This document shows positions 1-47,085 of a stretch of 64,000 nt of DNA, piece after piece. The stretch spans positions 10,375 through 74,374 of the forward strand of contig JAFQMN010000004.1 in the NCBI GenBank assembly GCA_017414435.1. The letters are read 5' to 3'. The stretch is from Oscillospiraceae bacterium (lineage in GTDB: Bacteria; Bacillota; Clostridia; Oscillospirales; Ruminococcaceae). How positions within the stretch are numbered: position 1 is the first letter of the stretch; each line of letters opens with the position of its first letter. A program made the position numbers and the translations under genes. A model generated the notes under the pieces. It searched no databases, was not told the DNA's origin, and saw nothing but the letters and a program-made list of their open reading frames with translations.

Positions 1-506
1 AAAAACAATTGTATGTTTTATATGATGATTTTGGGAAATTAACCTTGAAAAGCTTAGATAATACGCGAGTTAATTTCTTAATCAATGAAAACTCTGCCGA
101 GAATTATAATTATTCCTCTTCTATAGATAGCGAAACATACAATAAGGTAAAACTTACATATGATAACGAGAAAACCGGGCTGCGTGATGTATATATTGCT
201 AAAGATTCCCATAACATCAATAAATGGGGCGTATTGCAATACTTTGAAGTTTTAAATGACAATATAAATGGTAAATCTAAAGCTGATGCATTACTTAAAC
301 TATATAATACCAAAACTCAGAAGCTAACAGTTAAGAACATACTAGGTGACAACAACATTAGAGCAGGTTCTATAATTGTAGTTTTTATGGATTTAGGCAG
401 TATTAAAGTTAAAAACATGATGCTAGTTGAAAAATGCAAACATAAATATAGAGAATCAGAACATTTAATGGATTTAACATTGCGAGGCGGTGAATCTATT
501 GCATAA
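1..506 (+). CDS. Phage tail/baseplate protein, XkdQ/YqbQ-like (C-terminal part; 5' end lies outside the window)
   Basis: The frame is open from the window edge; track ORF 9..506 simply begins at an internal TTG. It sits directly upstream of an XkdR/S/T/U-like baseplate series, and its stop overlaps the next start. The call rests on synteny with PBSX-type tail modules, not on a motif. Confidence 0.45.
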   Translation, partial: KQLYVLYDDFGKLTLKSLDNTRVNFLINENSAENYNYSSSIDSETYNKVKLTYDNEKTGLRDVYIAKDSHNINKWGVLQYFEVLNDNINGKSKADALLKLYNTKTQKLTVKNILGDNNIRAGSIIVVFMDLGSIKVKNMMLVEKCKHKYRESEHLMDLTLRGGESIA

Positions 507-822
507 TGCTAACGACATTTTAGAACTTATAAAAAAAGTCTCAAACTATACCGTAGAAATAAGTCAGCTTGCAGACTTTTGTTATGGCAAAGTTGTAAGT
601 GTGTCACCTCTTAAAATCATCGTTGAACAGCATATGGAATTCGGAAAAGCTCAACTTGTATTAACACGTAATGTTTCCGATTTTAATATTTATATAACAA
701 TTGATAATAATAAAAAAACTGTAACTGTTCACAATGCCCTGCAAATAGGAGAACAGGTGATTTTAATTCGCAAAAAAGGCGGTCAGAAATATTTAGTTAT
801 TGATCGGGTGATTAATTTATGA
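490..822 (+). CDS. Small phage baseplate protein, XkdR-like position (DUF2577-type)
   Basis: 110-aa ORF that overlaps both neighbours (translational coupling). Size and order match the PBSX xkdR slot. The start codon (GTG 490 or TTG 499) is uncertain. Confidence 0.4.
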   Translation: MNLLHNANDILELIKKVSNYTVEISQLADFCYGKVVSVSPLKIIVEQHMEFGKAQLVLTRNVSDFNIYITIDNNKKTVTVHNALQIGEQVILIRKKGGQKYLVIDRVINL

Positions 823-1223
823 TACCAGCTGCAAATACTATTTTAACAGCGGATATATTAATAGATACTATCCCTTCTTTGAACTATGCTATGCAATTCA
901 AAAAAGCAATTATTTCAGGAAAAATAGATAACTTAGATGCAATGCGACAAGTAATATTTAAAATACTTAATACTGAACGCTATGACTATATTATCTACTC
1001 TTGGAATTATGGCATTGAACTCAAAGATCTTTATGGTATGCCTTATACCTACATATGTCCAGAACTTGAACGAAGAATAACTGAAGCTCTAACTCAAGAT
1101 GATCGCATTAGGTCTGTAACTAACTTTGAATTTACTCTAAGTTCAAAAAATGAAGTTTTAGTTACATTTACCGTTAATACTGTTTACGGAGATGTTAATA
1201 CTGAAAGAATGGTGGATTTTTAA
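819..1223 (+). CDS. Phage baseplate wedge protein, XkdS / gp25(W)-like position
   Basis: 134-aa ORF with a 4-nt ATGA overlap upstream and a 1-nt overlap with the baseplate J gene. Size and order are typical of the protein preceding baseplate J. Confidence 0.45.
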   Translation: MIPAANTILTADILIDTIPSLNYAMQFKKAIISGKIDNLDAMRQVIFKILNTERYDYIIYSWNYGIELKDLYGMPYTYICPELERRITEALTQDDRIRSVTNFEFTLSSKNEVLVTFTVNTVYGDVNTERMVDF

Positions 1224-2287
1224 TGTACGAAAATGTTACCTATGAAGACATTTTGCAGCGAATGTTAGATAGGGTACCAAATATAATAGATAAACGTGAA
1301 GGATCTATTATATATGATGCTTTAGCACCCGCTGCAATAGAACTTCAGTTAATGTATATTGAATTTGATGTGATTTTAAAGGAAACATTTGGAGATACTG
1401 CATCCAGAGAATATTTAATTAGGCGCGCTGCGGAACGTGGTATAAAGCCATATGAAGCCAGCTGTACAATTCTACGTGCTATAAGTACGCCAGCTAATAT
1501 ATCCATACCTATTGGTGCTAGGTTTTCGTTAGATGATTTAAACTACGTAACCATAGAGAAGCTAGCAGATGGTGAGTATAAAGTGCAATGTGAAACTGCT
1601 GGAAAGATTGGCAACAAATACTTTGGTACGCTTATTCCAATAGAATATATAGCAGGTCTTGAAACCATAGAAATTACTGAACTTCTAATACCTGGCGAAG
1701 ATGAAGAAGAAACAGAAGCCCTACGTACTAGATATTTTGAAACGTTTAAAACTAATGCATATGGCGGTAACCAGAAAGATTACATACAAAAAACAAATGC
1801 AATCAACGGAGTTGGTGCAACTAAAGTAACACCTATATGGAATGGTGGTGGTACAGTACTACTCACCATTTTAAATAGTGAGTTTAATAAGGCGTCAGAT
1901 ACTTTAATTGCTTCCGTACAAAACGAGATTGATCCTACATCTGATGGTTCAGGAGTTGGCATTGCTCCAATTGGACATATTGTTACAGTTAATACCGCTG
2001 AAGAAGTTCCCGTTAATATATCAACTTCCATTACTTTTAAAGATGGTTATTCATTTGTAACCTTACAGTCAGAAATTATTGCAGCTATTGAATCATATCT
2101 GCTTGAAATTAGGAAAGGATGGGCAAATGAATCTGAGAGTATAGTGAGAATCAGTTTAATTGACGCAAAGATATTGAATTTAGAAGGTGTAGTTGATGTT
2201 TCCAACACAGAGATAAACGGTTTTAGTGTAAACCTTACTCTTAACGGATATGAAATTCCCATCTTAGGAGAAATAAGTAATGGATAG
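1223..2287 (+). CDS. Baseplate J-like protein (XkdT-like)
   Basis: 354 aa. The N-terminus MYENVTYEDILQRMLDRVP...DKREGSIIYDALAPAAIEL is the characteristic baseplate J/XkdT opening, and the gene sits in the expected slot. Confidence 0.75.
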   Translation: MYENVTYEDILQRMLDRVPNIIDKREGSIIYDALAPAAIELQLMYIEFDVILKETFGDTASREYLIRRAAERGIKPYEASCTILRAISTPANISIPIGARFSLDDLNYVTIEKLADGEYKVQCETAGKIGNKYFGTLIPIEYIAGLETIEITELLIPGEDEEETEALRTRYFETFKTNAYGGNQKDYIQKTNAINGVGATKVTPIWNGGGTVLLTILNSEFNKASDTLIASVQNEIDPTSDGSGVGIAPIGHIVTVNTAEEVPVNISTSITFKDGYSFVTLQSEIIAAIESYLLEIRKGWANESESIVRISLIDAKILNLEGVVDVSNTEINGFSVNLTLNGYEIPILGEISNG

Positions 2288-2819
2288 AGAAATTAATTTA
2301 ATAAACTACTTGCCGCCATATATTAAAAGGTATAGAGAGATTCAACAAATAACTAATACAGAAAATCTAGAACTTCAACTATTAGCTGATGAATCTGAAA
2401 GAGTAAAAAATAATCAGTTTATATTTACTTGTAATGAAACAGGTATATCACGGTTTGAATCTCTTCTTAATATAACTCCAGAAGCAGAAGAACCATTAGA
2501 TTTAAGAATTTCAAGAGTACTCATGCGCTGGAACGACATGACATCATATACTTGGAAAACACTAGTTCAAAAGCTAGACATACTCTGTGGTGAAACTAAC
2601 TACAAAATATCTTCCGATTCAGATAACTATATGTACACACTCAATGTTCATCTAGATATGTATGGGCAGTTAGACGAACTGCAAAATTTAATAGCATATA
2701 TGATACCTGCAAATATATGTATGTTTATTAATAATATAATAGATTGTTCCTCTATCGGTTCGATTTTCGCTGCTTCAGGTTTAGCTATATGTGATGAATT
2801 TACAATAATAGAAGAGTAA
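2280..2819 (+). CDS. Phage tail protein, XkdU/YmfQ-like (DUF2313-type)
   Basis: 179 aa. LINYLPPYIKRYREIQQI...ENLELQLL resembles the conserved N-terminus of the protein that follows baseplate J in PBSX-like modules. It overlaps the upstream gene by 8 nt. Confidence 0.55.
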   Translation: MDREINLINYLPPYIKRYREIQQITNTENLELQLLADESERVKNNQFIFTCNETGISRFESLLNITPEAEEPLDLRISRVLMRWNDMTSYTWKTLVQKLDILCGETNYKISSDSDNYMYTLNVHLDMYGQLDELQNLIAYMIPANICMFINNIIDCSSIGSIFAASGLAICDEFTIIEE

Positions 2820-2832
2820 GGAGATATTAGAC

Positions 2833-3972
2833 ATGGCAGAATTTAGAGCTATGGTTATAACGAATAGTGGGCAGGAACTAATAGCTAAAACATTAGCAGG
2901 AGAACTTGAATTGCAATTTACTAAGATTTGCCTTACAGATACAGCATATACCGATGCACAATTGCTGGAATTATCTACATTGAATAATATTTGCCAATCT
3001 GCATCTATCTCTAGAGTTTCTAAAACATCTGAATCTGCAATACAAGTTGAAGGTGTAGTTTTAAATGTAAACCTTACTACAGGTTATTATATACAAACAT
3101 TAGGGTTATTTGCAAAAGATTTAAATAACAATGAAGTGTTATATGCAGCTTGTGGTGCAACCATACCAGGTTGGATGCCACCATATAACGGCTCGACCAT
3201 TTCAGGCTGCAATTTAAAATTAATAACTATGGTTTCTAACACATCAAATATAAGCCTTACTGTTGATCCTGCTGCAATAGCTACCATTGAAGATTTAAAT
3301 TCCCTTGAACTATCCTCCATTCAAACTGTAGATGGCTTACATGGTATTAGATATTATAACAATGCTCTTGAAGTTAAGAACAATGCTGGCAATTGGATTA
3401 ATCCTGCATCCTTAGCTACAGCTGCAGATTTAAATTCCCTTGAATTATCCTCCATTCAAACTGTAGATGGCTTACATGGTATTAGATATTATAACAATGC
3501 TCTTGAAGTTAAGAACAACACTGGCAATTGGATTAATCCTGCATCCTTAGCTACAGCTGCAGATTTAAATTCCCTTGAACTATCCTCCATTCAAACTGTA
3601 GATGGCTTACATGGTATTAGATATTATAACAATGCTCTTGAAGTTAAGAACAACACTGGCAATTGGATTAATCCTGCATCTCTAGCTATGAATGATGAAG
3701 TAAATGCCTTAAAACCAAAAAGTAAAACTCTAACACTAAGTGTTTCTAATTGGGTTTTAAACTCCAATACTCAATTATACGAATATACCGTCACAGACTC
3801 AACAGTTTCACCATCACATATTATCAATTGCTATATGGATTTAGACAATCAAGTCAAACTTACTGATGGTTATACTGAAACATATAATGGGTCATATAAA
3901 ATTATTACATCAAAGCAACCGATTGAAAATATTACAATAACTGTAACAAAGCAATTATATGCGAGTTGGTAA
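2833..3972 (+). CDS. Phage tail fibre protein containing three tandem 45-aa repeats
   Basis: 379-aa ORF after the baseplate genes, with GGAG 8 nt upstream of the ATG. It carries an internal near-identical triplication: DLNSLELSSIQTVDGLHGIRYYNNALEVKNN(A/T)GNWINPASLATAA. Confidence 0.6.
   Translation: MAEFRAMVITNSGQELIAKTLAGELELQFTKICLTDTAYTDAQLLELSTLNNICQSASISRVSKTSESAIQVEGVVLNVNLTTGYYIQTLGLFAKDLNNNEVLYAACGATIPGWMPPYNGSTISGCNLKLITMVSNTSNISLTVDPAAIATIEDLNSLELSSIQTVDGLHGIRYYNNALEVKNNAGNWINPASLATAADLNSLELSSIQTVDGLHGIRYYNNALEVKNNTGNWINPASLATAADLNSLELSSIQTVDGLHGIRYYNNALEVKNNTGNWINPASLAMNDEVNALKPKSKTLTLSVSNWVLNSNTQLYEYTVTDSTVSPSHIINCYMDLDNQVKLTDGYTETYNGSYKIITSKQPIENITITVTKQLYASW
3292..3690 (+). repeat. 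In-frame tandem repeat, 3 copies x 135 bp, inside the tail fibre gene
   Basis: GATTTAAATTCCCTTGAA... recurs at 3292, 3427 and 3562 (period 135 nt). Only a few substitutions separate copies, e.g. AATGCTGGC versus AACACTGGC. Confidence 0.95.
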
Positions 3973-3984
3973 GGAGGTAATAAT

Positions 3985-5265
3985 GTGATAGGTAAAATTA
4001 ATACAAAAGGATTTAACATTAACGGAATTATTGAACAATATACGGCGGGTTCAAGTAATGTTAATGCTGGTGATTTTGTTTCTTTTATTAACGGTCTGGC
4101 AGAGAGGACAGCAGCACAATTATATTCTGGTAGTGATGATAGTTACTTATCGGCGGTAGCACTCGGTAAAAACAAGGTATTCATTGCCTATCAGTATAAT
4201 TCATATTTACGAGGCATTGTGTGTACAATAAAACGTACTACTATTACCGTTGGTACTGCTACAACAATTGCTCCTTACTCCTATAATCTCTATATTTCAG
4301 CTACCGCTTTAAGTGATAGCAAGGTGTTTATTTCTTATGGACAATATCAAAGCTATAGCGATTTATATGGCATAGTTTGCACAGTAAACGGTAGTAATAT
4401 TACAGTTGGCAATGCAATAATTCTTGATGCTGCAGCAGGTGCTTCTGGTACATATTTATACTATTCTACCATTGCAGTTGCTCTCGGCTCCGATAAAGTA
4501 TTAATTATATGGGGCTATAATAGTTCTTATCACTACTTAAGAGGTGTTGTGTGTACAATAAGCGGTACAACTATTACTAAAGGAACCATAACCTCGTTAA
4601 GCACTGTAGCTAATTCCGGGTATGGCTTTATGTCTGCAGTTGCATTAAATGACAATGACGTATTTATTGCACATGACTACAATGGTTCCAACTATTATTT
4701 ATATGGCTTGGTATGCCGTATTAACGGCACAACAATTTCAGTTGGAACAGATACATATTTAAGTACCAAAGGCTATATCGCATCGGCAACTTTATTAAGC
4801 CCTAACAAAGTATTTGTTGCACACCGTGGAGATAATAATTATCTATACGGATTAGTTTGTTTGGTAAATAATATGACTATATCTCCTGGGACTGATACAT
4901 TGTTAAGAAATGTAAATAGCTTTAGACTATCGCCAGTTACCTTAAACAATAATTATGTGTTTATTGCGCATTGTCCTAGCGATATAGGGAATCTATACTA
5001 TACAACTTGTGCAATAGATAACACCACAATCACAACTACAACAATTGCAAAGCAATCAGACTACAGTTATTTTTATGGACTATCAGTGGTACGTTATACA
5101 GACCATAACATGATTGTTATTTATGCAAACTCTAAACTTTATGGTAGACTTGTTGGCGGCTATACTATTGCCTCTACAACTTCAGTAGATCAAGATATTT
5201 TGGGTGTAGCTAAAACAAATGCAGTTGCAGGAGCTACAGTTGATGTGTACGTACCAAACATCTAA
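3985..5265 (+). CDS. Phage distal fibre / receptor-binding protein with about 7 degenerate internal repeats (beta-propeller-like periodicity)
   Basis: GTG start preceded by AAGGAGG. The protein repeats the pattern SAVAL..NKVFIA(H/Y)....YL(Y/R)G(I/L)VC.I.GTTI..GT about every 45-50 aa, seven times. Confidence 0.5.
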   Translation: MIGKINTKGFNINGIIEQYTAGSSNVNAGDFVSFINGLAERTAAQLYSGSDDSYLSAVALGKNKVFIAYQYNSYLRGIVCTIKRTTITVGTATTIAPYSYNLYISATALSDSKVFISYGQYQSYSDLYGIVCTVNGSNITVGNAIILDAAAGASGTYLYYSTIAVALGSDKVLIIWGYNSSYHYLRGVVCTISGTTITKGTITSLSTVANSGYGFMSAVALNDNDVFIAHDYNGSNYYLYGLVCRINGTTISVGTDTYLSTKGYIASATLLSPNKVFVAHRGDNNYLYGLVCLVNNMTISPGTDTLLRNVNSFRLSPVTLNNNYVFIAHCPSDIGNLYYTTCAIDNTTITTTTIAKQSDYSYFYGLSVVRYTDHNMIVIYANSKLYGRLVGGYTIASTTSVDQDILGVAKTNAVAGATVDVYVPNI

Positions 5266-5285
5266 AAAATAAGGAGTGAAAACAG

Positions 5286-5600
5286 ATGTATATTCTAACA
5301 GATAAAGACAATGTAATCATGTATATTGCAAATACAGTTTGTAGACAAAAAGAAAATAATTATTATCTTTTAAATGAAAATACAAATATGGCTCTAGCCA
5401 TTCCTCCTGAATTTGTAAAGAGTGCATATGAAGTGGCTGTAATTCCTCAAAACGTTTCCGAACAAAGGTATTGCTATTCTCCTGAACAAGGCTTTTTTAA
5501 AAATGAAAATTTCGTTAAGCACTACAGTAATGAAGAACGCTTAAATGCGCTTGAAGATATAGTTAATATGCTTGTATTGGGAGGAATACAACATGAATGA
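5286..5600 (+). CDS. Phage hypothetical protein (XkdW position)
   Basis: 104-aa ORF with AAGGAG upstream, lying between the fibre genes and the XkdX-like small ORF. I recognise no motif. Confidence 0.4.
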   Translation: MYILTDKDNVIMYIANTVCRQKENNYYLLNENTNMALAIPPEFVKSAYEVAVIPQNVSEQRYCYSPEQGFFKNENFVKHYSNEERLNALEDIVNMLVLGGIQHE

Positions 5601-5697
5601 AAAATTGCAAAATTATTTAAGAATGCAAATTGAAATGGGTAGATTAACTTTAGAAGACATCCAAATTAAATATCCTGACTTTGAGGTGGTATTGTGA
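5593..5697 (+). CDS. XkdX-like small phage protein (34 aa; absent from the ORF track)
   Basis: ATG at 5593 is preceded by GGGAGGA with a 7-nt spacer. Translation is MNEKLQNYLRMQIEMGRLTLEDIQIKYPDFEVVL. It overlaps the stop of the upstream gene and the GTG start of the holin. Size and position match the xkdX slot before the lysis genes. Confidence 0.5.
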   Translation: MNEKLQNYLRMQIEMGRLTLEDIQIKYPDFEVVL

Positions 5698-5915
5698 AAG
5701 ATATAAAGATAAATTGGAAACTTAAATTAACGAGTCGTAAATTTTGGGCTGCTATACTCGGTTTTATCTCTCCTTTACTTCTTAGTTTTAATGTATCAGA
5801 AAGTGTAGTTGCTCAGGTTTCTAGCATTGTTATGTCTGGTGCAACTTTAATTGCATATATTATCGGTGAAGGATTAGTTGATTCCAATAAACAGGGAGAT
5901 GAACGTAATTCATGA
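5694..5915 (+). CDS. Phage holin
   Basis: 73 aa. The N-terminus KINWKLKLTSRKFWAAILGFISPLLL plus a second hydrophobic segment and a charged C-terminus is typical of Firmicutes phage holins. It lies immediately upstream of, and overlaps (ATGA), the endolysin. Confidence 0.7.
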   Translation: MKDIKINWKLKLTSRKFWAAILGFISPLLLSFNVSESVVAQVSSIVMSGATLIAYIIGEGLVDSNKQGDERNS

Positions 5916-6697
5916 TTTTAAAAGAGTGTATGTTAATTAAAAATGCTTGTTATATCCATAACAAAAAAATCACCAATGGTAAGCCAACTGGCATAGTTGT
6001 GCATTCCACTGGTGCTAACAATAAAACTTTAAAAAGATACGTTCAGCCTGTTTCATCTCAACCCTATTACAACGAAGTCATAGTTGATTTAGGTAAGAAT
6101 ATATATAGTAATCATTGGAACAATTATTACGTAGAAAATAACCGCAGCTGTTGCGTTCATGCATTTATAGGTGTTAATGCAACAGGAAAAATAGAAACAT
6201 ACCAAACTCTACCATTTGATATATGCTGCTGGGGTTGTGCATCTGGCAGCAAAGGATCTTATAACTATAATCCTAGTGCTAGAATTCAATTCGAGATATG
6301 TGAAGATAACCTCAATGACCGCATTTACTTTGACGCGGTGTTTAATGAGGCAATTGAATTTTGCGTCTACTTATGCAAACTCTTTGAATTTGGAGCAGAT
6401 AAGATATGTTCGCATCGTGAAGCGTATTTAACCGGGTATGGAAATAACCATGGAGATTGTGACCATTGGTTAAAACGCTTTGGAAAGAATATGGATTGGT
6501 TCCGAAGTCAAGTTAAATCGCAACTAAACGAAGAAAATAATACTCATAATAGAAAATCTATAGAAGAGTTGGCGCAAGAGACAATAGATGGTAAATGGGG
6601 GAATGGAACGGTAAGAAAAAACGCTCTTATCTCTGCTGGTTATAATTACAGCAAAGTGCAAAAGCGTGTTAATGAAATACTCTATAGTAATAAATGA
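5912..6697 (+). CDS. Endolysin: N-acetylmuramoyl-L-alanine amidase with a C-terminal Cpl-7-like cell-wall-binding repeat
   Basis: The N-terminal half resembles amidase_2/PGRP-type enzymes (GIVVHSTGANN..., HREA...). The C-terminus GKWGNGTVRKNALISAGYNYSKVQKRVNEIL matches the Cpl-7 (CW_7) repeat pattern GxWGNGxxRxxxLxxAGYxxxxVQxxVN. Confidence 0.8.
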   Translation: MILKECMLIKNACYIHNKKITNGKPTGIVVHSTGANNKTLKRYVQPVSSQPYYNEVIVDLGKNIYSNHWNNYYVENNRSCCVHAFIGVNATGKIETYQTLPFDICCWGCASGSKGSYNYNPSARIQFEICEDNLNDRIYFDAVFNEAIEFCVYLCKLFEFGADKICSHREAYLTGYGNNHGDCDHWLKRFGKNMDWFRSQVKSQLNEENNTHNRKSIEELAQETIDGKWGNGTVRKNALISAGYNYSKVQKRVNEILYSNK

Positions 6698-7111
6698 ATC
6701 AATGAAGTAATGCTCACATTAAATTTTTTTTACATTGTTGATTACTATAAATATATTCTCCCTATAAATCAATAACTTTCTTTGGTTGTTTTATGTTATT
6801 TAGCCCTATTAAAAGCCAATTAATAGCCGAACAAATCAAAAACCGAACTAGTAACACATTAATAACAAACAGTTGATAAAATGGCTTTATATAGCGATTA
6901 ATCCGAGAATGTACTTTGTTATAGCATATAATTCAAATTTGTCAAACTAGGAATCCTTATATCGTGTAAAGCGACTTTTAGTTAATAACTTTAATTTCTA
7001 TTACAACAATCCCACGTTTTCGATCAATTTTAAATTATTGCCCACGGGAAATGTAAGACATAAAGCTATATGTGTCAAGTTGAGTCATTTTATCTTATAA
7101 TACTCAATTTT

Positions 7112-7144
7112 AAACAATCCCTCAACATTGTTGAGGGATTGTTT
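7112..7144. terminator. Stem-loop (14-15 bp) acting as a likely bidirectional intrinsic terminator
   Basis: AAACAATCCCTCAA-CATTG-TTGAGGGATTGTTT. On the plus strand it is followed by TTTTTG. On the minus strand it begins 6 nt after the TAG of the 37-aa ORF, where the U-tract is weaker. Confidence 0.6.
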
Positions 7145-7150
7145 TTGTCT

Positions 7151-7264
7151 CTAACAGCACTTTTTTTGGCCAGGTTCGATTGCACAGCATGGTGTGCTTA
7201 AAAAGGCTCCGTGTACCTCAGAATCTTCTAAGCTCACAACAAAATCTATTAAATTATTATCCAT
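7151..7264 (-). CDS. 37-aa Cys-rich putative RiPP precursor peptide (not in the ORF track)
   Basis: Hand translation of the minus strand gives ATG(7264) MDNNLIDFVVSLEDSEVHGAFLSTPCCAIEPGQKKCC TAG(7153-7151). A Shine-Dalgarno AGGAGGTG (7280-7273) lies 8 nt upstream of the ATG. The ORF starts 49 nt downstream of the radical SAM/SPASM gene and is followed by a terminator hairpin. Confidence 0.65.
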   Translation of the reverse strand: MDNNLIDFVVSLEDSEVHGAFLSTPCCAIEPGQKKCC

Positions 7265-7313
7265 TACTATTTCACCTCCTTTCTTTACTATTTCTTAGAA
7301 TGTAAATCATATC

Positions 7314-8639
7314 TTAAACAATAACTTTCTTTTTCCTACGGTCGTATTCAAATTTCAAAACATCAAACAGATTGTATTTTAACGTAGGGCAAGTTTTCAA
7401 AGTAACACAAGTGCCCATACACAATGGTAAAATATTGCAGTCAGCACATTCTTTATCTTTAAGTGGGGTATATAAAATATTTTTTAAATAATACGAATTA
7501 TCAATTGATTGATCTTTTTCCTTTTCTTTTTTTATCAGTTCAAAGATATTCCCAATTTCTTTCCCGGGTTTTCCAGCGTCTGTCCAACAGCCAAAAAGAT
7601 TTCCATCTGGCCCTATCATATAAGCATGCTCAGATGTTGCTACACAATGTTGAATAATTTGAGGTAAAGGATAAATGGTTGCTTTAAAACCGAGTTTTAA
7701 AATGTCTACAATATACTCTAGTTCTTTTTTAGAAAATTCTTTGACATCTAAAAAAAGATCAAATTGTTTTGAACATTCACTTGCATAGTTTCTTATTGGA
7801 GCGATCGATACTAAACAATCATTTAAATTTTCTTTTGCAAAAATTTCTAACAGTTCTTTCACTCTTGTTTCATTTTCTTTAGTTGCATGAACACGCATGG
7901 CTACTTTTATACCGCCTGCTTTGAGCATTTTTAAATTGTTAAGAAGGGTATCAAACGTCCCTTTTGATGAATTTTTTAGCTTCCTGGACTTATTATGTAA
8001 ATCAGGTGGCCCATCAAAGCATATTTGTACACCCTCAATTCTGCTTTCTTTCATTTTATTTACTGTACTTTCATCTATAAGGTAGCCATTCGTTATCATA
8101 TATGCTAAAGATTTTGTTTTATATTTATCACAAATATCGTTGATTTTTTTAGATAAACTCCAAATGCTATTTTTTACTAATAAAGGTTCTCCCCCATACC
8201 ATGTAATTCGAATTTTTTTGCCTTTTTTTGCATAATTTTCGCATAGCTCAGCTATAGCATCTTCTACCTCCGTTGTCATCATCAAATTAGTCTTTCTGTT
8301 ATCATAGTTTCCCTCATAACAATAAGGGCAAGCAAAATTACAAGAGTAGGTGGGCATTATAGTTAATTTTAAGTATTCACTATCATATTTACTTTTCTGA
8401 TACATAAATTCTATATAATCCAATTCATTAAAATCGTCGTTAATTATATAACCACTTTTTTCCATGGCTTCTAGTCTTTTTTTATTATCTTCTTCTAATT
8501 CAGACTCTTTTATTGTATCTATTTTATTGTATAAATTCATAAATTTACCATCTGCAACGGCAAACACACTAGTTAAGCTGTTAAAGATTAATTTGTGACC
8601 ATCATGTTCAAAAAATATATTGTACCTAGAATGTTTCAA
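7314..8639 (-). CDS. Radical SAM / SPASM-domain peptide maturase
   Basis: CNFACPYC (CX3CX2C) at about residue 100, GGEPLL, and a complete C-terminal SPASM signature: CVATSEHAYMIGPDGNLFGC (CX13GX4C) followed by CADCNILPLCMGTC (CX2CX5CX3C). The roughly 95-aa N-terminal extension before the cluster motif resembles a peptide-recognition (RRE-like) domain. TTG start with AAGGAGTG 7 nt upstream. Confidence 0.85.
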   Translation of the reverse strand: MKHSRYNIFFEHDGHKLIFNSLTSVFAVADGKFMNLYNKIDTIKESELEEDNKKRLEAMEKSGYIINDDFNELDYIEFMYQKSKYDSEYLKLTIMPTYSCNFACPYCYEGNYDNRKTNLMMTTEVEDAIAELCENYAKKGKKIRITWYGGEPLLVKNSIWSLSKKINDICDKYKTKSLAYMITNGYLIDESTVNKMKESRIEGVQICFDGPPDLHNKSRKLKNSSKGTFDTLLNNLKMLKAGGIKVAMRVHATKENETRVKELLEIFAKENLNDCLVSIAPIRNYASECSKQFDLFLDVKEFSKKELEYIVDILKLGFKATIYPLPQIIQHCVATSEHAYMIGPDGNLFGCWTDAGKPGKEIGNIFELIKKEKEKDQSIDNSYYLKNILYTPLKDKECADCNILPLCMGTCVTLKTCPTLKYNLFDVLKFEYDRRKKKVIV

Positions 8640-8705
8640 TTATATTCACTCCTTTTTTAATTTTTATTTATAATTACAAAGCAAAATTTGCATAAAACAA
8701 TATCT

Positions 8706-8957
8706 TCATTCAAGCTGGTTATTTAAAATTAAATTGATAAAATTTTTAATAACTAAATTATCTTTAATGTTTTGTTCAACTATTTTTGAATTAAACTCTT
8801 TTTCTACATCGTGAACAAGTACAAAAATCTCAAAAGATGAAAAACATAGATCGTCAACAATATTACTATCTAAAGATATTTTTTCTGTTATATCAGGTTT
8901 TATATTTAAAATTATATTCTTCAATTTATTAAAAATAGCTATATTATCTTTTTTCAA
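8706..8957 (-). CDS. Acyl/peptidyl carrier protein-like (83 aa)
   Basis: Size and helix pattern fit an ACP. DDLCFSSFEIFVLVHDVEKEF aligns with the D-S-L/xxVEL phosphopantetheine-site region; the candidate Ser is in FSS. TTG start with a strong SD GGAGGGA 6 nt upstream, and a 4-nt TTGA overlap with the ligase stop. Confidence 0.6.
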   Translation of the reverse strand: MKKDNIAIFNKLKNIILNIKPDITEKISLDSNIVDDLCFSSFEIFVLVHDVEKEFNSKIVEQNIKDNLVIKNFINLILNNQLE

Positions 8958-10375
8958 ATTACATCCCTCCTTTTAATTTTATTTGTATAAGTTTTTTCAA
9001 AAGGTTGATCGGTTAACTCAAATTTATTTACTCGTTTATAAATAGGAAGCGTTGAATTTATTTGTTCAACTATATTACAGATTGCATCATATATTTCTCT
9101 ATGCTTTAAAAAAGCGTTAGAAAATATTTTTGCATATATTTGATTTTTTTGCTTGTATACTATAATTTCATCAATTTCGGGATATTGTAAAAATTTATTT
9201 TCAAGTTCTTCTGGGCATACTTTTTTACCATTATCGAAAATCATTAAATTTTTGATTCTACCAGTAACAAACAAAAATCCATCTTTTATAAAACCAATAT
9301 CACCTGTATGAAACCATCCATCTATTATTACTTTGTCCGTTAACTGTTGGTTGTTATAATAGCCAACCGTAACATTACTTCCTTTGATTAAGATTTCTTG
9401 ATTTTTTTCTGCAATTTTAACCTCATTACATGGTACTATTAAACCTGCTGCATTATCTCTTCCATTTATTAATGGGTTAATAGCAACACCGGGAGAACAT
9501 TCGGTTATACCATAACAACTAGACAAGCCAATACCTAATTTCCTATAACTTTTAATTATAGTTTCTCCTATCTGAGCCCCACCGCACAATATTTTGCTTA
9601 AACAATTTCCTACCGTCTCTTGCAAACCATATTTGGAGATTTTCAGTAGTAAAAATTTAGCAATTTCGGGCACAAGGAGCAAAAAAGTAGGATTTACAAT
9701 TTTTAAATCATCAAAAAATGTTTTTGTATTACTAAAAACAATTTTATTGCCATTAATAATAGAGGCAAGTAATACACAAGTTAAACCGAATAAATGATAA
9801 AATGGTAGAATATTTAAAATTACATCTTTCATTTCATACTTATAAACACTACAACCAGCATATACATTGCAACATAAATTTTTATTAGATAACATAACAC
9901 CTTTTGAAACGTCTGTAGTTCCAGAAGTAAATGCAATTGTACATATCTCATCTTCTGAGGTGTCAGGTAAAATGTTATCCAATTGGTGCGCGGTGTTAAT
10001 TTCTATTTCATCAAAATTTATAACTGATATGTTGTTTATTTTTAAATTTAAAAGAGCTATATCAGTGATTATGGTTTTTATTTCATACTTCGAACATAAT
10101 ATCTTTAATTCTTCTGAACTTAAATTAGGTTCTGCCAGCACAGCTATTCCGCCAGAAACTACAATACCAAAATATGCAACAGCCCATATATAAGAAGTTG
10201 TAGCTAGAATCAAATTGTTATTTTTTTTAATTTGCTTACCAAACTTATTAGCAAAGTAAGCAACATCTAGAAAGAACTGCTTGTAGGTTATTTGTATACC
10301 ATTAGCTTCGAATAAAACATTATTGGAATATTTATAACAATACGTTGATAATAGTTGGCTTAAAGTCTTTATCAA
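8954..10375 (-). CDS. AMP-dependent acyl ligase (FadD / fatty-acyl-AMP ligase-like adenylate-forming enzyme)
   Basis: Adenylation core motifs are present: FTSGTTDVSKGVMLS (A3), YGITECS (A5), GWFHTGDIG (A7), GRIKNLMIFDNGKKVCPEELE (A8), and a C-terminal NKIKRR Lys. TTG start with GAAGGTG upstream. Confidence 0.8.
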   Translation of the reverse strand: MIKTLSQLLSTYCYKYSNNVLFEANGIQITYKQFFLDVAYFANKFGKQIKKNNNLILATTSYIWAVAYFGIVVSGGIAVLAEPNLSSEELKILCSKYEIKTIITDIALLNLKINNISVINFDEIEINTAHQLDNILPDTSEDEICTIAFTSGTTDVSKGVMLSNKNLCCNVYAGCSVYKYEMKDVILNILPFYHLFGLTCVLLASIINGNKIVFSNTKTFFDDLKIVNPTFLLLVPEIAKFLLLKISKYGLQETVGNCLSKILCGGAQIGETIIKSYRKLGIGLSSCYGITECSPGVAINPLINGRDNAAGLIVPCNEVKIAEKNQEILIKGSNVTVGYYNNQQLTDKVIIDGWFHTGDIGFIKDGFLFVTGRIKNLMIFDNGKKVCPEELENKFLQYPEIDEIIVYKQKNQIYAKIFSNAFLKHREIYDAICNIVEQINSTLPIYKRVNKFELTDQPFEKTYTNKIKRRDVI

Positions 10376-10412: not shown

Positions 10413-10985
10413 TTAATCTAGTGAAATATATTTTTTAAACTTATCAAAAAGATTATAAAATTCATCTTTAAACATAGCAATAAGATATTCATCGTGATAT
10501 TCACCTTGAACAAATGCATGTCTTTTTCTTATTCCTTCAATTTTAAACCCAGCTGAAGTTATATTATCCAAGCTGTTTTTATTAAAATCCAAAACAGACG
10601 ACACTACTTTTTTTACAGGGAAATATTGAAACATATAATCAAGAAAAATCAACCAAGCTTCTGTATTTATAGGTGATTTTCTGTATCCAGGTTTTATATA
10701 AGTGCCAGCAAAAAAATTTCCATTTTCTAGGTCTATAAAAGCATACCCTACATATCCAACTAATTGTTCCCCTTTTTTATCTATAATGAAAAAATAATTA
10801 TCGTATTCATTATTATCGTTTAAATTTTCGATTTTATTTTTAAACTTGGCACATGAGTAAATTTTTTTATGATCACTGTTCCATTTGTTTAATTCATTAA
10901 GATTATTTTCCCATTCATAAAAATCGCTCAAATATTTATCTTCATAGGTAGAAAGATAAATATGCTTACTTTCAAGCACTTTCAT
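10413..10985 (-). CDS. GNAT-family N-acyltransferase (RimJ/RimL-like)
   Basis: Acetyltransferase-fold pattern (...LVGYVGYAFID..., GYRKSPINTEAW, FNKNSLDNITSAGFKIEGIRKRHAFVQGEYHDEYLIAM). I place the start at ATG 10985 (MKVLESK...) because AAGGAGGA sits 5-6 nt upstream; the longer track ORF start (11045) has no SD. Confidence 0.7.
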   Translation of the reverse strand: MKVLESKHIYLSTYEDKYLSDFYEWENNLNELNKWNSDHKKIYSCAKFKNKIENLNDNNEYDNYFFIIDKKGEQLVGYVGYAFIDLENGNFFAGTYIKPGYRKSPINTEAWLIFLDYMFQYFPVKKVVSSVLDFNKNSLDNITSAGFKIEGIRKRHAFVQGEYHDEYLIAMFKDEFYNLFDKFKKYISLD

Positions 10986-11103: not shown

Positions 11104-11134
11104 CCCCCCCCCATTTTTGTCGAATTTTGTCGAT
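11104..11134. repeat. C9/G9 homopolymer followed by two tandem decamers (TTTTGTCGA at a 10-bp period)
   Basis: Nine consecutive C at 11104-11112. TTTTGTCGA occurs at 11115-11123 and again at 11125-11133. Both lie immediately upstream of the candidate -35. Confidence 0.9.
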
Positions 11135-11785: not shown

Positions 11786-14700
11786 CTATTTTGCTACTTT
11801 CGATTTGCCCATTTTCTTTAAGGTAGCAGCTTTTGCTGTAATTTTTAAAATACCATTTGCATCAGTTTTTGCCTTGCCTAATTTTACAACTGCGCCTTTA
11901 GAATCTAAGCCCCAAACTGTAATGCTTTTCTTTTTCATTTCTGTTTCTAAGTAAATTGTTGTAGTGCAGCCCAAAGTGCCAAGATCGCCAGTATCTAAAA
12001 CAATATTCGTCTTTGCATCTTTTTTATACTTTGTTGCATCTTGCTTTTCAACCTGCAATAACAATTTGCCGGTAGCTGTAGCTGTTGATGCCTGAATATC
12101 TGCACTGTTAATTAAAAGTGTAGAATCTTCATCGTTAACAACCAGCCTGACTGTGCCTTTAGTTTTTGCTTTTAAGTCCGCTAAAGTCATTTCAAAACCG
12201 CTGTTATTTAATATCTCATACTTCCCTTTTGTCTTTTCAACAACCAATGGGCTTTCTTCAATCACATATGCATATTTTGTATCGTCAATGCTAAACGTTA
12301 CAACACCATCATCCATTGTGTATACGCCCATATTTTTTACTAACTTTCCAGTTGACCTGTTGATTTTATATACCGAACATGGCAAATCAATCTTTAACTT
12401 TTTAGAGATCAAATCAGCTGCGCCATAAACATCCACTGTAAACGGTAACTTCTTTTGTACTTTACCAAAAGTTATAATCTGAATATCTTCACCGTTACCA
12501 AAAAGTTTTTTGTTTTTATTTATAGCTTTGGTTAAAAGAGCACTTTTTTCTACCATATCGGTATCTAAATTTATCTTTCCGTTTTTCTTTTCCCAAGCTT
12601 GCAACCAAGCATACACTTTTTTTGCTTCAGCAGCAGACATCGTGCCAGTTTCTTTAGAGCCAGCTGCTTTTCTTAAATTTTCTTTGTTAATTTCAAAACC
12701 AGATTCTCCACTTTCTCCTGCACTGTTAGAGCTTGTGGTAAACAAACTTTTAGAACTGTTAGTTTTGCTAGCTGCAGTGGTTGTTGCGGTTGTAGCCCAG
12801 GACACTTCATCCATTGGAATCTTTTCGCCGCTAATAATTTCTATTCCATCAACTATATTCGAGTTGAAAGCTCTTCTAAGAGATTCTGCACTTTCAAAAA
12901 TACCGCCGTTGCCTGTTAAGCTAAAGTCACCAGAGGTAGATCTTATTGTTCTGCCGTTAATTGTAATCGTTGTTGTATCTGTAGGTGCTGCTGTTGTGGT
13001 TGTAGAACCACCCGAAGACGAACCACTTGATGATGAACCGCCTCCACCGCCAGAGCTGCCGCCAGAGCTACCGCCTGAGCTTGATGACGAACTGCTTGAC
13101 GAAGACGATGATGATGTAGTAGTGGTGGTTGTTGTAGTTGTTGTAGCTGTTGGTACATATGCTGCCGGTTCAGCCACGGTAAATGTAAGCGAATTTGTTC
13201 TACCACTAAAGTCTGTTAATTTAAATGTATATGTTCCAGCTACTGTAGTTGTATATTTACAGTGGTTAACATATGGGGCATCTGCAGGATTTTTACTCAA
13301 ATTATTAGTAACACTTAAAGCATCACTGCTTGCCGGGTGTGTAAGCGCAATTGTTTTAACTGCTGCAACCCCTGCATCATTAAAATCAAATGCAAGCGTT
13401 ACACCGCCGCTCACACTACCTGTAACAGAAACTGAAGAGCTACCATTAGCTACTTCCACTGCATCAGCTGTGCCTAATTTATATGTAATGTTTTCAAACT
13501 CCGGTTCAACTGCATCGTAATAAAACGGTGCTATACCAACAATAGCCTCACTGCTATTACGTAATACTAATGTGTAAAAGCCTGCTGGCGTAGTTCCCCA
13601 AGTTATATCAAAGTACTTTGTAGTTTCACCATTTTGTTTATCCACTCTTAATTGTGCCAACACATCAACATCGGTTTCATCTTCTGTGGTTTCTGTTGCA
13701 CTCTTCGGTTTTGCAAAGTTTGCATTTTGGCTATCTTTAACTGTAATTGCACTACCAGCTGCAATCACAGTCCTTCCTGTTAAAGAATTTATTATATAAC
13801 TGTTAGCTGCACTATAATTAGAATCAGAAGCAGAAGCTACATCTTTAAAGTAAACTGGCAAATATTCTGTTACTACAGTACTACCATCTACTTGCGTTCC
13901 AACATACCCTGAACATGGAGCTGTGGTTGATAGCAAATCAGTTAAAAGTGCTGCTAATTTCCCATTTGTTCCCAAAGTTGCAGGGCCAGCATAGTCTAAA
14001 CCTGCCACTGTATAGCTGTTTCCTGTGGAATTTAAAAACACACTTTCACCAGCGGTTGCTCCACGCCATAATTTTGGTCCATTTCCAACCTGATTATATT
14101 TTACCATAAACACGGTTGGGTTGCCCCCAGACTGCGTAGCGTCAACATTTGCCAACAATGTAATTGGAGTTGTTTCTATAAAAATATCAACATCAGATTT
14201 GCTTGCTGCTGTACTTTTTGCTAAAACCGTACTATCTCCAACACCTGCTGTTCCGTTCGTGTAAGCCTGATTGCCTTTCTCTGTTGCATAGTTATCTGCA
14301 GCAAATGTAAAGCCACTTGTATTAAAGTTTGCGTTATCGCCAAGGTTAGCAACTGCACCACCAATTGCAGCATGGCAACCTGTTATTGTAACGCTGCTAC
14401 CATTTAAAACTCCTTTGTTAAGTATAGCACCGCCTTGCTCTGCACTACAACCGCTAATTTCACTACTGCTAATGAGCATTCTGCCTTTGTTGTAGATTGC
14501 ACCACCATACACGGCTTTATTATTTTTCAAATCTGTATCCTGTATAGTACAGCTACCATCAGTATCAACTAAAATTAACGAACTGCAATCTGCTACATTG
14601 CCACCATTTATTATTATTTTATTAGTTTCATTGCCATTAAAAAGTAAAATTGTTCCACTCTCTACAAAGAATAAGCAACCTTTGTAATCCGAGCCTCTAG

Positions 14701-15196
14701 AAATTGTATTGCCAGCACCAGAAATTTGACATGCATAGGCTTTACAAGCAAGTTCTTCGGTAACTGTTATATCGTCACTCAAAGTAACAGCTAAAATAAA
14801 CGGCACATTTATGGTTGCACTGCCTGCCGTTACCCCAGCAACTTCAGCCGGTGCATTGTTCATTGCCTGCTTTAATTCCTCAAAGGTAGAAACAGTTATT
14901 TCTGTTGCTGCTGCCAACACACCTCCTTCTTTTGCTATTGTATAATTGTAACCAATTTCACTATCTCCTAAAGATGTAACAATAGTTCCATCAGATTTAA
15001 CTATACCGGTAGAATTTTCTGCTGCAACAGTGTAGCTAACGCCATCCACCGAACCTGTTGCGGCTTCAGCTTCACCTGCTACACCAAGTGGTGTGCCAAC
15101 TGCAAAAGTTCTACCTGTTCCCAAAGTGTTTGCAAACACTAAAAAAGCCACAAAACTCGAAAGGTGCTTTTTTAGTTTTAATTTTATAGATCTCAT
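11786..15196 (-). CDS. Large secreted surface protein with GGAI-type (polymorphic-membrane-protein-like, predicted beta-helix) repeats, Ig-like middle region and T/S/G linker
   Basis: 1136 aa. Signal peptide MRSIKLKLKKHLSSFVAFLVFANTLG, with AAGGAGGAAG 8 nt upstream of the ATG. Repeated motifs YGGAIYNKG / QGGAILNKG / IGGAVANLG are separated by Cys-containing turns. A homopolymeric T10-S13-(GGS)n stretch follows. I found no LPXTG, S-layer homology or choline-binding motif. Confidence 0.7.
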   Translation of the reverse strand: MRSIKLKLKKHLSSFVAFLVFANTLGTGRTFAVGTPLGVAGEAEAATGSVDGVSYTVAAENSTGIVKSDGTIVTSLGDSEIGYNYTIAKEGGVLAAATEITVSTFEELKQAMNNAPAEVAGVTAGSATINVPFILAVTLSDDITVTEELACKAYACQISGAGNTISRGSDYKGCLFFVESGTILLFNGNETNKIIINGGNVADCSSLILVDTDGSCTIQDTDLKNNKAVYGGAIYNKGRMLISSSEISGCSAEQGGAILNKGVLNGSSVTITGCHAAIGGAVANLGDNANFNTSGFTFAADNYATEKGNQAYTNGTAGVGDSTVLAKSTAASKSDVDIFIETTPITLLANVDATQSGGNPTVFMVKYNQVGNGPKLWRGATAGESVFLNSTGNSYTVAGLDYAGPATLGTNGKLAALLTDLLSTTAPCSGYVGTQVDGSTVVTEYLPVYFKDVASASDSNYSAANSYIINSLTGRTVIAAGSAITVKDSQNANFAKPKSATETTEDETDVDVLAQLRVDKQNGETTKYFDITWGTTPAGFYTLVLRNSSEAIVGIAPFYYDAVEPEFENITYKLGTADAVEVANGSSSVSVTGSVSGGVTLAFDFNDAGVAAVKTIALTHPASSDALSVTNNLSKNPADAPYVNHCKYTTTVAGTYTFKLTDFSGRTNSLTFTVAEPAAYVPTATTTTTTTTTTSSSSSSSSSSSSSGGSSGGSSGGGGGSSSSGSSSGGSTTTTAAPTDTTTITINGRTIRSTSGDFSLTGNGGIFESAESLRRAFNSNIVDGIEIISGEKIPMDEVSWATTATTTAASKTNSSKSLFTTSSNSAGESGESGFEINKENLRKAAGSKETGTMSAAEAKKVYAWLQAWEKKNGKINLDTDMVEKSALLTKAINKNKKLFGNGEDIQIITFGKVQKKLPFTVDVYGAADLISKKLKIDLPCSVYKINRSTGKLVKNMGVYTMDDGVVTFSIDDTKYAYVIEESPLVVEKTKGKYEILNNSGFEMTLADLKAKTKGTVRLVVNDEDSTLLINSADIQASTATATGKLLLQVEKQDATKYKKDAKTNIVLDTGDLGTLGCTTTIYLETEMKKKSITVWGLDSKGAVVKLGKAKTDANGILKITAKAATLKKMGKSKVAK
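12968..13152 (-). repeat. Low-complexity Thr/Ser/Gly-coding tract (TTTTTTTTTTSSSSSSSSSSSSSGGSSGGSSGGGGGSSSSGSSSGGSTTTT)
   Basis: Read directly from the translation of 11786..15196. The DNA here is locally GC-rich and repetitive (GCCGCCAGAGCT units, GGTGGTTGTTGTAGTTGTTGTAG). Confidence 0.9.
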
Positions 15197-46395: not shown

Positions 46396-47085
46396 TTAAA
46401 CCCCCAAATCATTATAAAATTGCAAAACTTCATACCAGCAAACTTGTTTTATTGCGCTGTTTCTTTTTTTTGCACTGCACACAGAAATTACATATTCCCG
46501 ATTATCAAAGCATTCAAAAAAATATTTTTTTTCTTGCACATATAAACAAAATTTAGTTTTTATGTGGCCAGCAAACGATATTGACTTTATCTCTTTAAAA
46601 ATTCCTGTTCCTAACATTTTAGCAAAACTTTCTTTTAATGTCCAAAATTTGAAAAATAAATCTATCTTTGAATTGGCAGAGCATTGCTTAATAGCAGCGT
46701 ACTCATCCTTCAAAAAAAATCTGCTAGCAATAGATTCTACATTATTTACTACTCTTTTTTTTTCAATATCTATTCCAATATTTTGTGTGCTAATTACACA
46801 AACTAAAAATGAATCACTATGTGAAATATTAAAATTAAGCTTGCTATCCAAAAGATAAGGCTTTCCAAATTTCCCAACAAAAATCTCTTGCAAAGGTATT
46901 CCCTTTTGAGCCAAAATATATTTTAAAAACAAGTCTGCCGCTAATTTAGTATAGCTTGAGCTTAAATTCACTGTGTCAAAATAACGTTGCTTATAGTTGC
47001 TTATATATTTTTTATAACAATCTAGCGCACCCTCTTGTTGAGGTTGTAATTTTAAAAAATAAATATAATCTTCCAGAAAATGCAC
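46396..47085 (-). CDS. Sfp-type 4'-phosphopantetheinyl transferase
   Basis: FGKPYL, FNISHSDS, GIDIEK, and FWTLKESFAKMLGTG are the Sfp-type PPTase motifs. 229 aa. Confidence 0.8.
   Translation of the reverse strand: MHFLEDYIYFLKLQPQQEGALDCYKKYISNYKQRYFDTVNLSSSYTKLAADLFLKYILAQKGIPLQEIFVGKFGKPYLLDSKLNFNISHSDSFLVCVISTQNIGIDIEKKRVVNNVESIASRFFLKDEYAAIKQCSANSKIDLFFKFWTLKESFAKMLGTGIFKEIKSISFAGHIKTKFCLYVQEKKYFFECFDNREYVISVCSAKKRNSAIKQVCWYEVLQFYNDLGV

Follow-up and report, generated by a model that had tools for sequence, protein, structure and literature searches.

A 37-codon precursor peptide gene next to a radical SAM/SPASM gene and a putative ligase-carrier-GNAT acylation cassette in a gut Oscillospiraceae genome

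To our knowledge, the known kinds of lipidated peptides that are made on the ribosome and modified after translation (RiPPs) are few: lipolanthines, goadvionins, selidamides, lipoavitides and lipolassos. Among the enzymes that modify other RiPPs, those of the radical S-adenosylmethionine (rSAM) type with a SPASM domain include the thioether-forming SCIFF maturase CteB, while other SPASM enzymes form C-C and C-O links, epimerise residues or oxidise cysteine. Fatty acylation of lysine or ornithine side chains in RiPPs, catalysed by GCN5-related N-acetyltransferases (GNATs), has been described for the selidamides (kamptornamide, phaeornamide and the nostolysamides; PMC8784127, PMC13647313), and both the goadvionin GNAT GdvG and the non-RiPP enzyme SbzI take their acyl group from a carrier protein (PMC8784127; abstract of PMC11685415). 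Here we describe an operon in which both kinds of chemistry may come together. It lies in a stretch of 64,000 nucleotides from an Oscillospiraceae bacterium (contig JAFQMN010000004.1; the whole stretch is referred to as the window), and its five genes, all on the minus strand, encode in this order a GNAT, an ANL ligase, an acyl carrier protein (ACP), an rSAM/SPASM enzyme and, last, a short peptide. We consider it likely that the product is a peptide cross-linked by the rSAM enzyme and acylated by the GNAT from an acyl-ACP, a chemistry that we infer from the genes. The features concerned are the following.

10413..10985, minus strand: GNAT acyltransferase, 190 aa, Acetyltransf_3/4 (PF13302/PF13420), E = 5.5e-10
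8954..10375, minus strand: ANL acyl/aryl-adenylate-forming ligase, 473 aa, Pfam AMP-binding E = 1.9e-51
8706..8957, minus strand: acyl carrier protein-like, 83 aa, with the serine motif DDLCFSSFEIF and a 4-nt overlap with the ligase stop
7314..8639, minus strand: radical SAM/SPASM peptide maturase, 441 aa, with an N-terminal domain resembling a RiPP recognition element (RRE); best family TIGR04334
7273..7280, minus strand: Shine-Dalgarno sequence AGGAGGTG, 8-nt spacer to the peptide ATG
7151..7264, minus strand: precursor peptide gene, 37 aa, MDNNLIDFVVSLEDSEVHGAFLSTPCCAIEPGQKKCC, ATG at 7264-7262 and TAG at 7153-7151
Residues of the peptide: leader, approximately 1-20, with DFVVSL; core T24-P25-x-C27-A28-x-x-P31-G32-x-K34, then K35-C36-C37
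7112..7144, no strand assigned: terminator-like hairpin with a 15-bp stem and a 3-nt loop, beginning 6 nt past the peptide stop

The intergenic gaps are 37, -4, 66 and 49 nt, and no terminator-like site was found between the genes of the operon. Judged from its sequence and surroundings, the 37-codon open reading frame (ORF) is a genuine precursor peptide gene, conserved and adjoining the rSAM gene. It had been picked out in an earlier note on this DNA, and the ORF (7264..7151, minus strand), the sequence AGGAGGTG with its 8-nt spacer and the hairpin with its 15-bp stem 6 nt past the TAG were all confirmed. The AGGAGGTG octamer occurs three times in total in the 64 kb, and another of its copies precedes a long ORF at a similar spacing. 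The exact 37-aa peptide has been gene-called on about 29 contigs (ENA and Logan assemblies, with no NCBI source listed), and one record carrying it is labelled pig gut metagenome. UvrB, PolC and FtsK of the window match proteins of an Oscillospiraceae metagenome-assembled genome at NCBI exactly. Orthologous small ORFs adjoin related rSAM genes, which agrees with the note's view of a RiPP precursor encoded beside its rSAM enzyme. At locus L001 the peptide MDFIVSPEEIMSEKYNSMKATPACAVELGRKGCC is encoded behind the closest rSAM homologue (P0002, 57% identity), at the same distance as in the window and with GGGGGTG at the position equivalent to the Shine-Dalgarno sequence, and at L083, a contig whose GNAT-ligase-ACP cassette shares 77-88% identity with that of the window, MNNYNSKDFKFVFLPEETEYVYGVTPVCAPGPGDK is encoded between rSAM genes. 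In single-pair BLASTP comparisons the window peptide gave E = 3e-10 against the L001 peptide and 3e-5 against that of L083. In all three peptides the core reads T-P-x-C-A-x-x-(P/L)-G-x-K with the same spacing, and the N-terminal part carries a motif of the DF(I/V)V type. Among the codons of conserved T, P, A, G and C residues there are four to five synonymous differences, and the indels between the orthologues keep the frame, the sole internal one measuring 6 nt. Since conserved residues are encoded by different synonymous codons, selection acts at the protein level. Looser relatives stand beside other rSAM homologues, with MKIIVSRQEIKEHSFAIRSIMNVCAIDNSGRKCRC at L024 and a peptide ending in RFILSPNKEIYGPKFADCTRVCAPGLDGSTRSNCCK at L219.

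The comparison of orthologues also indicates which parts of the peptide matter. An acidic N-terminal leader followed by a core bearing cysteines and lysines, as had been anticipated, is supported. The search for homologues beside related rSAM genes that the earlier note had called for did return small ORFs, although neither the CC...CC spacing nor the proposed Gly-Ala (GA) cleavage site is conserved among them. The two vicinal cysteine pairs are not what is conserved: the first cysteine of the first pair is replaced by Ala or Val in the orthologues, the terminal CC is missing in L083, and Cys27 is the sole invariant cysteine. The operon holds a single precursor without paralogues, with the pattern CC-x8-CC. 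The peptides of the window, L001 and L083, which share the same cassette, all have Lys34 at a fixed spacing, and a lysine is a plausible acyl acceptor. Just upstream of its intact precursor, L083 also carries a decayed duplicate (8690-8790, NDLNFVFLPNETECAYCVTSVRVQGKNVK) that has no start codon. At L087 and L088, where the cassette is joined to a different rSAM enzyme of 473 aa, a convincing precursor was not found, and a search of metagenome contigs with a degenerate GNIFELIK pattern, combined with tblastn, gave no relevant locus among the matches listed.

The hairpin behind the peptide gene (7144-7112) has a folding energy of -22.3 kcal/mol (z = -5.7 against shuffled sequences). Its 3' flank on the ORF strand is AAAAUU, with no run of U, and the U-tract lies on the plus strand, so that the hairpin would be a bidirectional or weak terminator at best. 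From the stop codon through the 15-bp hairpin, the window (7112-7153) and L001 (1945-1990) are near-identical, where the flanking proteins are only 47-57% identical, and conservation is higher in this 3' element than in the coding sequence. It is not a known RNA family, as Rfam gave zero matches across the whole window, and a search of viral contigs for the hairpin returned 0 matches.

The rSAM enzyme matches best the Clo7bot maturase family TIGR04334 (364.6 bits, positions 1-438 of 440). A single-sequence search of genome contigs found no relatives of it, while a 30-sequence alignment, searched against one genome per species, retrieved 79 loci, the closest only about 40% identical. The cysteines of the CxxxCxxC motif (C100, C104 and C107) and those of the SPASM domain (C332, C351, C398, C401, C407, C411 and C417) are invariant among 30 homologues. 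In the AlphaFold model (pLDDT 85) residues 1-85 form three strands and three helices, and the best match in the PDB, by sequence as well as by fold, is CteB (5WGG/5WHY) over the full length, N-terminal domain included. The CxxxCxxC motif, SPASM cysteines and N-terminal RRE domain of a CteB-like SPASM enzyme are all found in the protein. Its family matches take in further thioether enzymes (PapB, SCIFF and the QhpD type), with anSME, SuiB, DynA and cyclophane-forming enzymes in a second tier.

In C. botulinum, C. sporogenes, Paraclostridium and many metagenome-assembled genomes, the related rSAM genes are flanked by tandem small ORFs, which start with MK(F/Y)I(V/I)KP, have Cys-rich cores and match TIGR04333 (54-60 bits for the C. 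botulinum peptides, the model cutoff being 31 bits). The block I-D-F-V-V-S-L of the window peptide, which follows a 5-residue extension and lacks the proline, aligns to the MKFIVKP columns of these peptides, as do MDFIVSP of L001 and RFILSP of L219, and an apparently Clo7bot-like (K/D)F(I/V)V(K/S)P motif is the conserved N-terminal element of the peptide family. The likeness to Clo7bot systems comprises the full-length match of the rSAM enzyme, the short precursor, the approximate resemblance of the leader motif and the Cys-bearing core; many relatives also carry a GNAT, and some a ligase and a carrier protein, like the operon of the window. There are differences as well. The rSAM enzyme shares no more than 42% identity with canonical members, the precursor is single rather than one of several tandem paralogues with CxxC/Cx3C repeats, its core reads TPxCAxxPGxK(xCC) instead of such repeats, the GNAT belongs to another subfamily with no detectable sequence similarity, and the operon has neither the HExxH protein nor the ABC exporter. 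By sequence, the peptide belongs to a rare and divergent branch of the Clo7bot-like rSAM RiPPs, and it is coupled to a dedicated ligase-ACP-GNAT cassette.

The ranthipeptides (with SCIFF) and sactipeptides, such as CteB-thermocellin, PapB-freyrasin and AlbA-subtilosin, resemble the system of the window in their SPASM rSAM enzyme with an N-terminal RRE, in the cysteines of the core and in the precursor gene adjoining that of the maturase, CteB being the nearest solved structure. They differ in that the SCIFF and PapB models score the rSAM enzyme well under their cutoffs (66 bits against 425 and 116 against 340, respectively), and in that the cross-link of the window peptide is a predicted one. 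The literature searched yielded no cluster for a ranthipeptide or a sactipeptide that has its own ligase-ACP-GNAT cassette.

The cassette itself is rare. The true start of the GNAT gene is the ATG at 10985, which is preceded by GGAGG and gives a protein of 190 aa, the same length as its homologues; among 5.8 billion proteins, GNATs of this type form only five other clusters at 90% identity. In the three of these that were looked up (P0123-P0125), a ligase gene follows the GNAT gene in every contig read, and the ACP gene and then one or more rSAM genes follow the ligase gene in all three contexts that are long enough (the window, L083 and L087/L088), the contig of L091 ending inside the ligase gene. 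The NCBIfam matches of the ligase are of the MenE or fatty-acid-CoA ligase-like kind, and its nearest PDB sequences are oxalyl-CoA synthetase, 4CL and MenE. The DLxFSS motif of the ACP is kept in its homologues, which are 49-88% identical in L001, L083 and L087. An adenylating enzyme, a carrier with a serine motif and an acyltransferase are accordingly encoded together, with loading and transfer as predicted steps. A Sfp/ACPS-type phosphopantetheinyl transferase encoded elsewhere in the window could make the holo-ACP, and is 35% identical to the one that the cluster at L217 encodes for itself:

46396..47085, minus strand: Sfp/ACPS-type 4'-phosphopantetheinyl transferase, Pfam ACPS E = 5e-19, outside the operon

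The cassette is found with rSAM genes of different lineages. The three rSAM enzymes to which the closely similar cassette of L083 is joined are only about 41% identical to that of the window, and the L083 precursor keeps TPxCAxxPGxK all the same. Right after the ACP gene, L083 carries a 34-residue relic (6879-6980) of the N-terminus of a window-type rSAM enzyme (76% identity), and these features indicate an exchange of modules. Together with the decayed precursor, the relic is a trace of recombination and duplication in the L083 cluster. Canonical Clo7bot-like clusters encode a small unrelated GNAT, a HExxH protein of about 200 aa and an ABC exporter, to which some add an AMP-ligase and a PP-binding protein, or a fusion of ligase and carrier; genes for a GNAT, a ligase and a carrier protein, unrelated to those of the window, recur in the clusters L003, L005, L008, L012, L217 and L219. 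Kinship of the window GNAT with the small canonical one was considered and rejected, as there is no significant similarity.

With the selidamides, the operon shares a GNAT gene within a RiPP cluster and a conserved core lysine as candidate acyl acceptor. Selidamides, however, derive from precursors of NHLP/Nif11 or lanthipeptide type, and no rSAM enzyme is mentioned in the paper (PMC8784127); Pfam and NCBIfam scans of the window precursor gave no NHLP/Nif11 match. Selidamide GNATs were moreover mined with PF00583, while that of the window is of the PF13302/PF13420 type, a difference between family models. With the goadvionins and SbzI, the likeness is the carrier protein encoded beside the GNAT, as acyl-ACP-dependent N-acylation needs. 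There the acyl group comes from a polyketide synthase or other dedicated pathway and goes onto lanthipeptide-type peptides or a non-peptide substrate, whereas here a stand-alone ANL ligase is the sole acyl supplier and the peptide partner would be rSAM-modified. The lipolasso acyltransferases (9IY3; bioRxiv 10.1101/2024.12.31.630886) are likewise peptide-associated GNATs, although of another RiPP class, whose abstract speaks of neither ligase nor ACP. The GNAT model has 9IY3 among its top ten PDB matches (TM approximately 0.61), no better than SpeG, RimL and MccE. No description of rSAM cross-linking together with a dedicated ligase, carrier protein and GNAT was found in the literature.

A route can be proposed, with each of its chemical steps inferred, as are the donor of the acyl group, its site on the peptide and the role of the product as a bacteriocin or a signal. 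The N-terminal leader of Clo7bot type, including DFVVSL, would be bound by the RRE-like domain of the rSAM enzyme, which, if it acts like CteB and PapB, would then make a thioether between the thiol of a core cysteine and a carbon atom in a second residue. The foremost candidate for this cross-link is the invariant Cys27 of TPxCA, and Cys26, Cys36 and Cys37 may join in. The ligase would adenylate a carboxylic acid and is presumed to load it onto the translationally coupled ACP, from which the GNAT would move the acyl group to an amine of the peptide. The epsilon-amine of Lys34 is favoured over the alpha-amine, the alternative acceptor, because Lys34 keeps its spacing without exception in the three cassette-sharing peptides, and because in L083 its motif goes with the cassette, of 77-88% identity, and not with the rSAM enzyme, of 41%. 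Leader removal and export would fall to functions outside the operon; in prophage-free strains an ABC-2 transporter is encoded directly downstream.

Should this chemistry be right, the five genes would be a highly compact pathway, encoded entirely in genes, to a cross-linked lipopeptide of an uncultured gut Oscillospiraceae bacterium, and would offer a first functional handle on the large Clo7bot-like rSAM family, C. botulinum and C. sporogenes included. The invariant TPxCAxxPGxK motif provides defined residues for mutagenesis. More tentatively, and with less than even confidence, we suggest that the product may be the founding member of an undescribed class of ribosomal lipopeptides, which would be rSAM cross-linked, ranthipeptide-like and N-acylated, probably on the lysine of TPxCAxxPGxK, by a carrier-dependent GNAT fed by an ANL ligase, with a cassette portable among the rSAM/precursor sets of gut Clostridia and sometimes found at prophage borders.

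Several observations weigh against the reading of the operon as a route to a cross-linked and acylated peptide, and are best considered along with the alternatives they bear on. On the side of acylation, the ACP match is weak (E = 3.8e-7, 30 bits, under the cutoffs, with no Pfam PP-binding match), the ligase is a generic ANL enzyme with no assignable substrate, and the GNAT model is of moderate quality (pLDDT 67) and resembles SpeG, MccE, RimL and the lasso-peptide acyltransferase 9IY3 about equally, its relatives being mostly acetyl-CoA users. The peptide might therefore be a genuine rSAM-modified precursor that the cassette does not acylate, the GNAT, ligase and ACP being merely co-transcribed with it and serving an MccE-like, self-protective N-acetylation or a separate small molecule. 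The weak ACP match, the acetyl-CoA dependence of the closest structural and sequence relatives of the GNAT (SpeG, RimJ/RimL and MccE) and the fact that canonical Clo7bot clusters have a small GNAT with no ligase or ACP would all fit. We nevertheless regard it as unlikely, as the cassette lies close against the rSAM and precursor genes, with its ligase and ACP genes overlapping, and travels with rSAM/precursor sets of different lineages; independent ligase-carrier-GNAT lineages recur in related clusters, and the motif containing Lys34 tracks the cassette and not the rSAM enzyme. As for the cross-link, cysteine is the sole hint of thioether chemistry in an enzyme type that also performs other chemistries, and the family is defined bioinformatically and has no characterised product. 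Literature searches brought up no paper on the Clo7bot family; an uncharacterised RaS-RiPP cluster of C. sporogenes is listed in a 2022 review, not confirmed as the Clo7bot cluster. Because 364.6 bits is below the equivalog cutoff of 600 bits, the rSAM enzyme is a relative and not an equivalog of TIGR04334. It could make some other change, such as a C-C or C-O cross-link, an epimerisation or a cysteine oxidation, with the cysteines serving as disulfides or metal ligands. The uncharacterised family, the second-tier matches to anSME, SuiB, DynA and cyclophane-forming enzymes and the single invariant cysteine leave room for such an outcome, which we hold to be improbable in view of the best structural and PDB-sequence match, the thioether-forming CteB, of the thioether enzymes PapB, SCIFF and QhpD-type among the family matches, and of the Cys-rich precursors of all relatives.

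Other points against the preferred reading, that of a cross-linked and acylated peptide, concern the peptide and its export. Only three or four clear orthologues were found, phmmer found nothing but the peptide itself among 1.84 billion representative proteins, and the peptide has no match to TIGR04333 of NCBIfam at E <= 0.01, nor do those of L001, L083, L024 and L219 at E <= 1. As the leader aligns and TIGR04333 is unmatched, the window peptide and its close orthologues are placed in a divergent branch outside the modelled family. A chance open frame in the AT-rich intergenic DNA between the rSAM gene and the terminator could be imagined on these grounds, given the want of any protein family or phmmer match and the many ORFs of 20-45 codons that occur nearby by chance. 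It is barely credible, however, beside a strong Shine-Dalgarno sequence at ideal spacing, significantly similar orthologues at the same position, synonymous changes at conserved residues with a frame-preserving indel, and the identical sequence on about 29 contigs. The operon also contains no leader peptidase or exporter. The earlier note had proposed a double-glycine-type (GA) leader, which a C39-peptidase ABC exporter would cut after Ala20 to release the 17-aa core FLSTPCCAIEPGQKKCC. This proposal, which we judge very unlikely, has in its favour G19-A20 of the window peptide, with E and V at plausible upstream positions. The site is absent in L001, L083, L024 and L219 (the first three have YNSMKA, YVYGV and FAIRSI there), and the conserved leader element is instead the N-terminal motif of FIV type. 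The note was right that the 64 kb hold no C39 exporter, and no C39 domain was found in the prophage-free downstream region (whose transporter is of ABC-2 type) or in the exporters of related clusters either. The latter lack the peptidase domain, as the PCAT models match them only from about position 130 onward, so that the supposed need for such an exporter falls away; canonical relatives carry the small HExxH protein in its stead.

The absence of a transporter from the window is explained by a prophage, which has inserted between the peptide gene and the ABC-2 transporter:

1..6918, plus strand: prophage end with phage genes (baseplate wedge, tail fibre, endolysin with CW_7 repeats)

The junction lies at approximately 6919, about 230 bp beyond the peptide stop, and homology to the prophage-free contigs L221 and L226 stops there. 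These are 99.9-100% identical to the window up to the junction and continue with host genes; they apparently stem from pig-gut samples of the same study, and so do not count as independent evidence. In both, the peptide gene is followed directly by a PqqD-family sequence (within 10480-12180 of L221, and the same in L226; Pfam 32.5 bits) that lacks a start codon and contains an in-frame TGA, apparently the relic of a decayed RRE gene. Behind it come genes for the ATPase and permease of ABC-2 type, for two large secreted proteins and for a WapI-like protein. The idea of the RiPP operon as prophage cargo was rejected, since an identical operon occurs without the prophage. Clo7bot-like rSAM/precursor cassettes are also found at the borders of mobile elements at L215 (2411-5315) and L217 (1-8631), where the neighbours are a prophage amidase and tail module and a phage-like replication module with a SAM-synthetase fragment; at L024 an intact metK lies just upstream of the rSAM gene.

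At its other end, the operon is set apart from an upstream gene for a 1136-aa protein by two terminator-like hairpins (11311-11283 and 11756-11720), and is preceded by two further features.

11101-11074, minus strand: putative promoter-like site TTGTGA-16-TATACT, a sequence match
11133-11114, minus strand: direct repeat TCGACAAAATTCGACAAAAA, upstream of the promoter-like site and followed by a G-run

A repeat of the form TCGACAAA(n)TTCGACAAAAA plus a G-run (11104-11133, minus strand) is also present in L087, L091 and L088, at about 100-170 nt upstream of the GNAT start in the four loci, and may be a candidate binding site for a regulator. The 1136-aa protein (11786-15196, minus strand) has a signal-peptide-like N-terminus and a long low-complexity tract of Thr, Ser and Gly, and no Pfam or NCBIfam match. 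Inside the tail-fibre gene of the prophage, a 135-bp tandem repeat (3291-3688; 2.9 copies, 97% matches) forms a region whose length is not the same in contig L220, which is identical in other respects.

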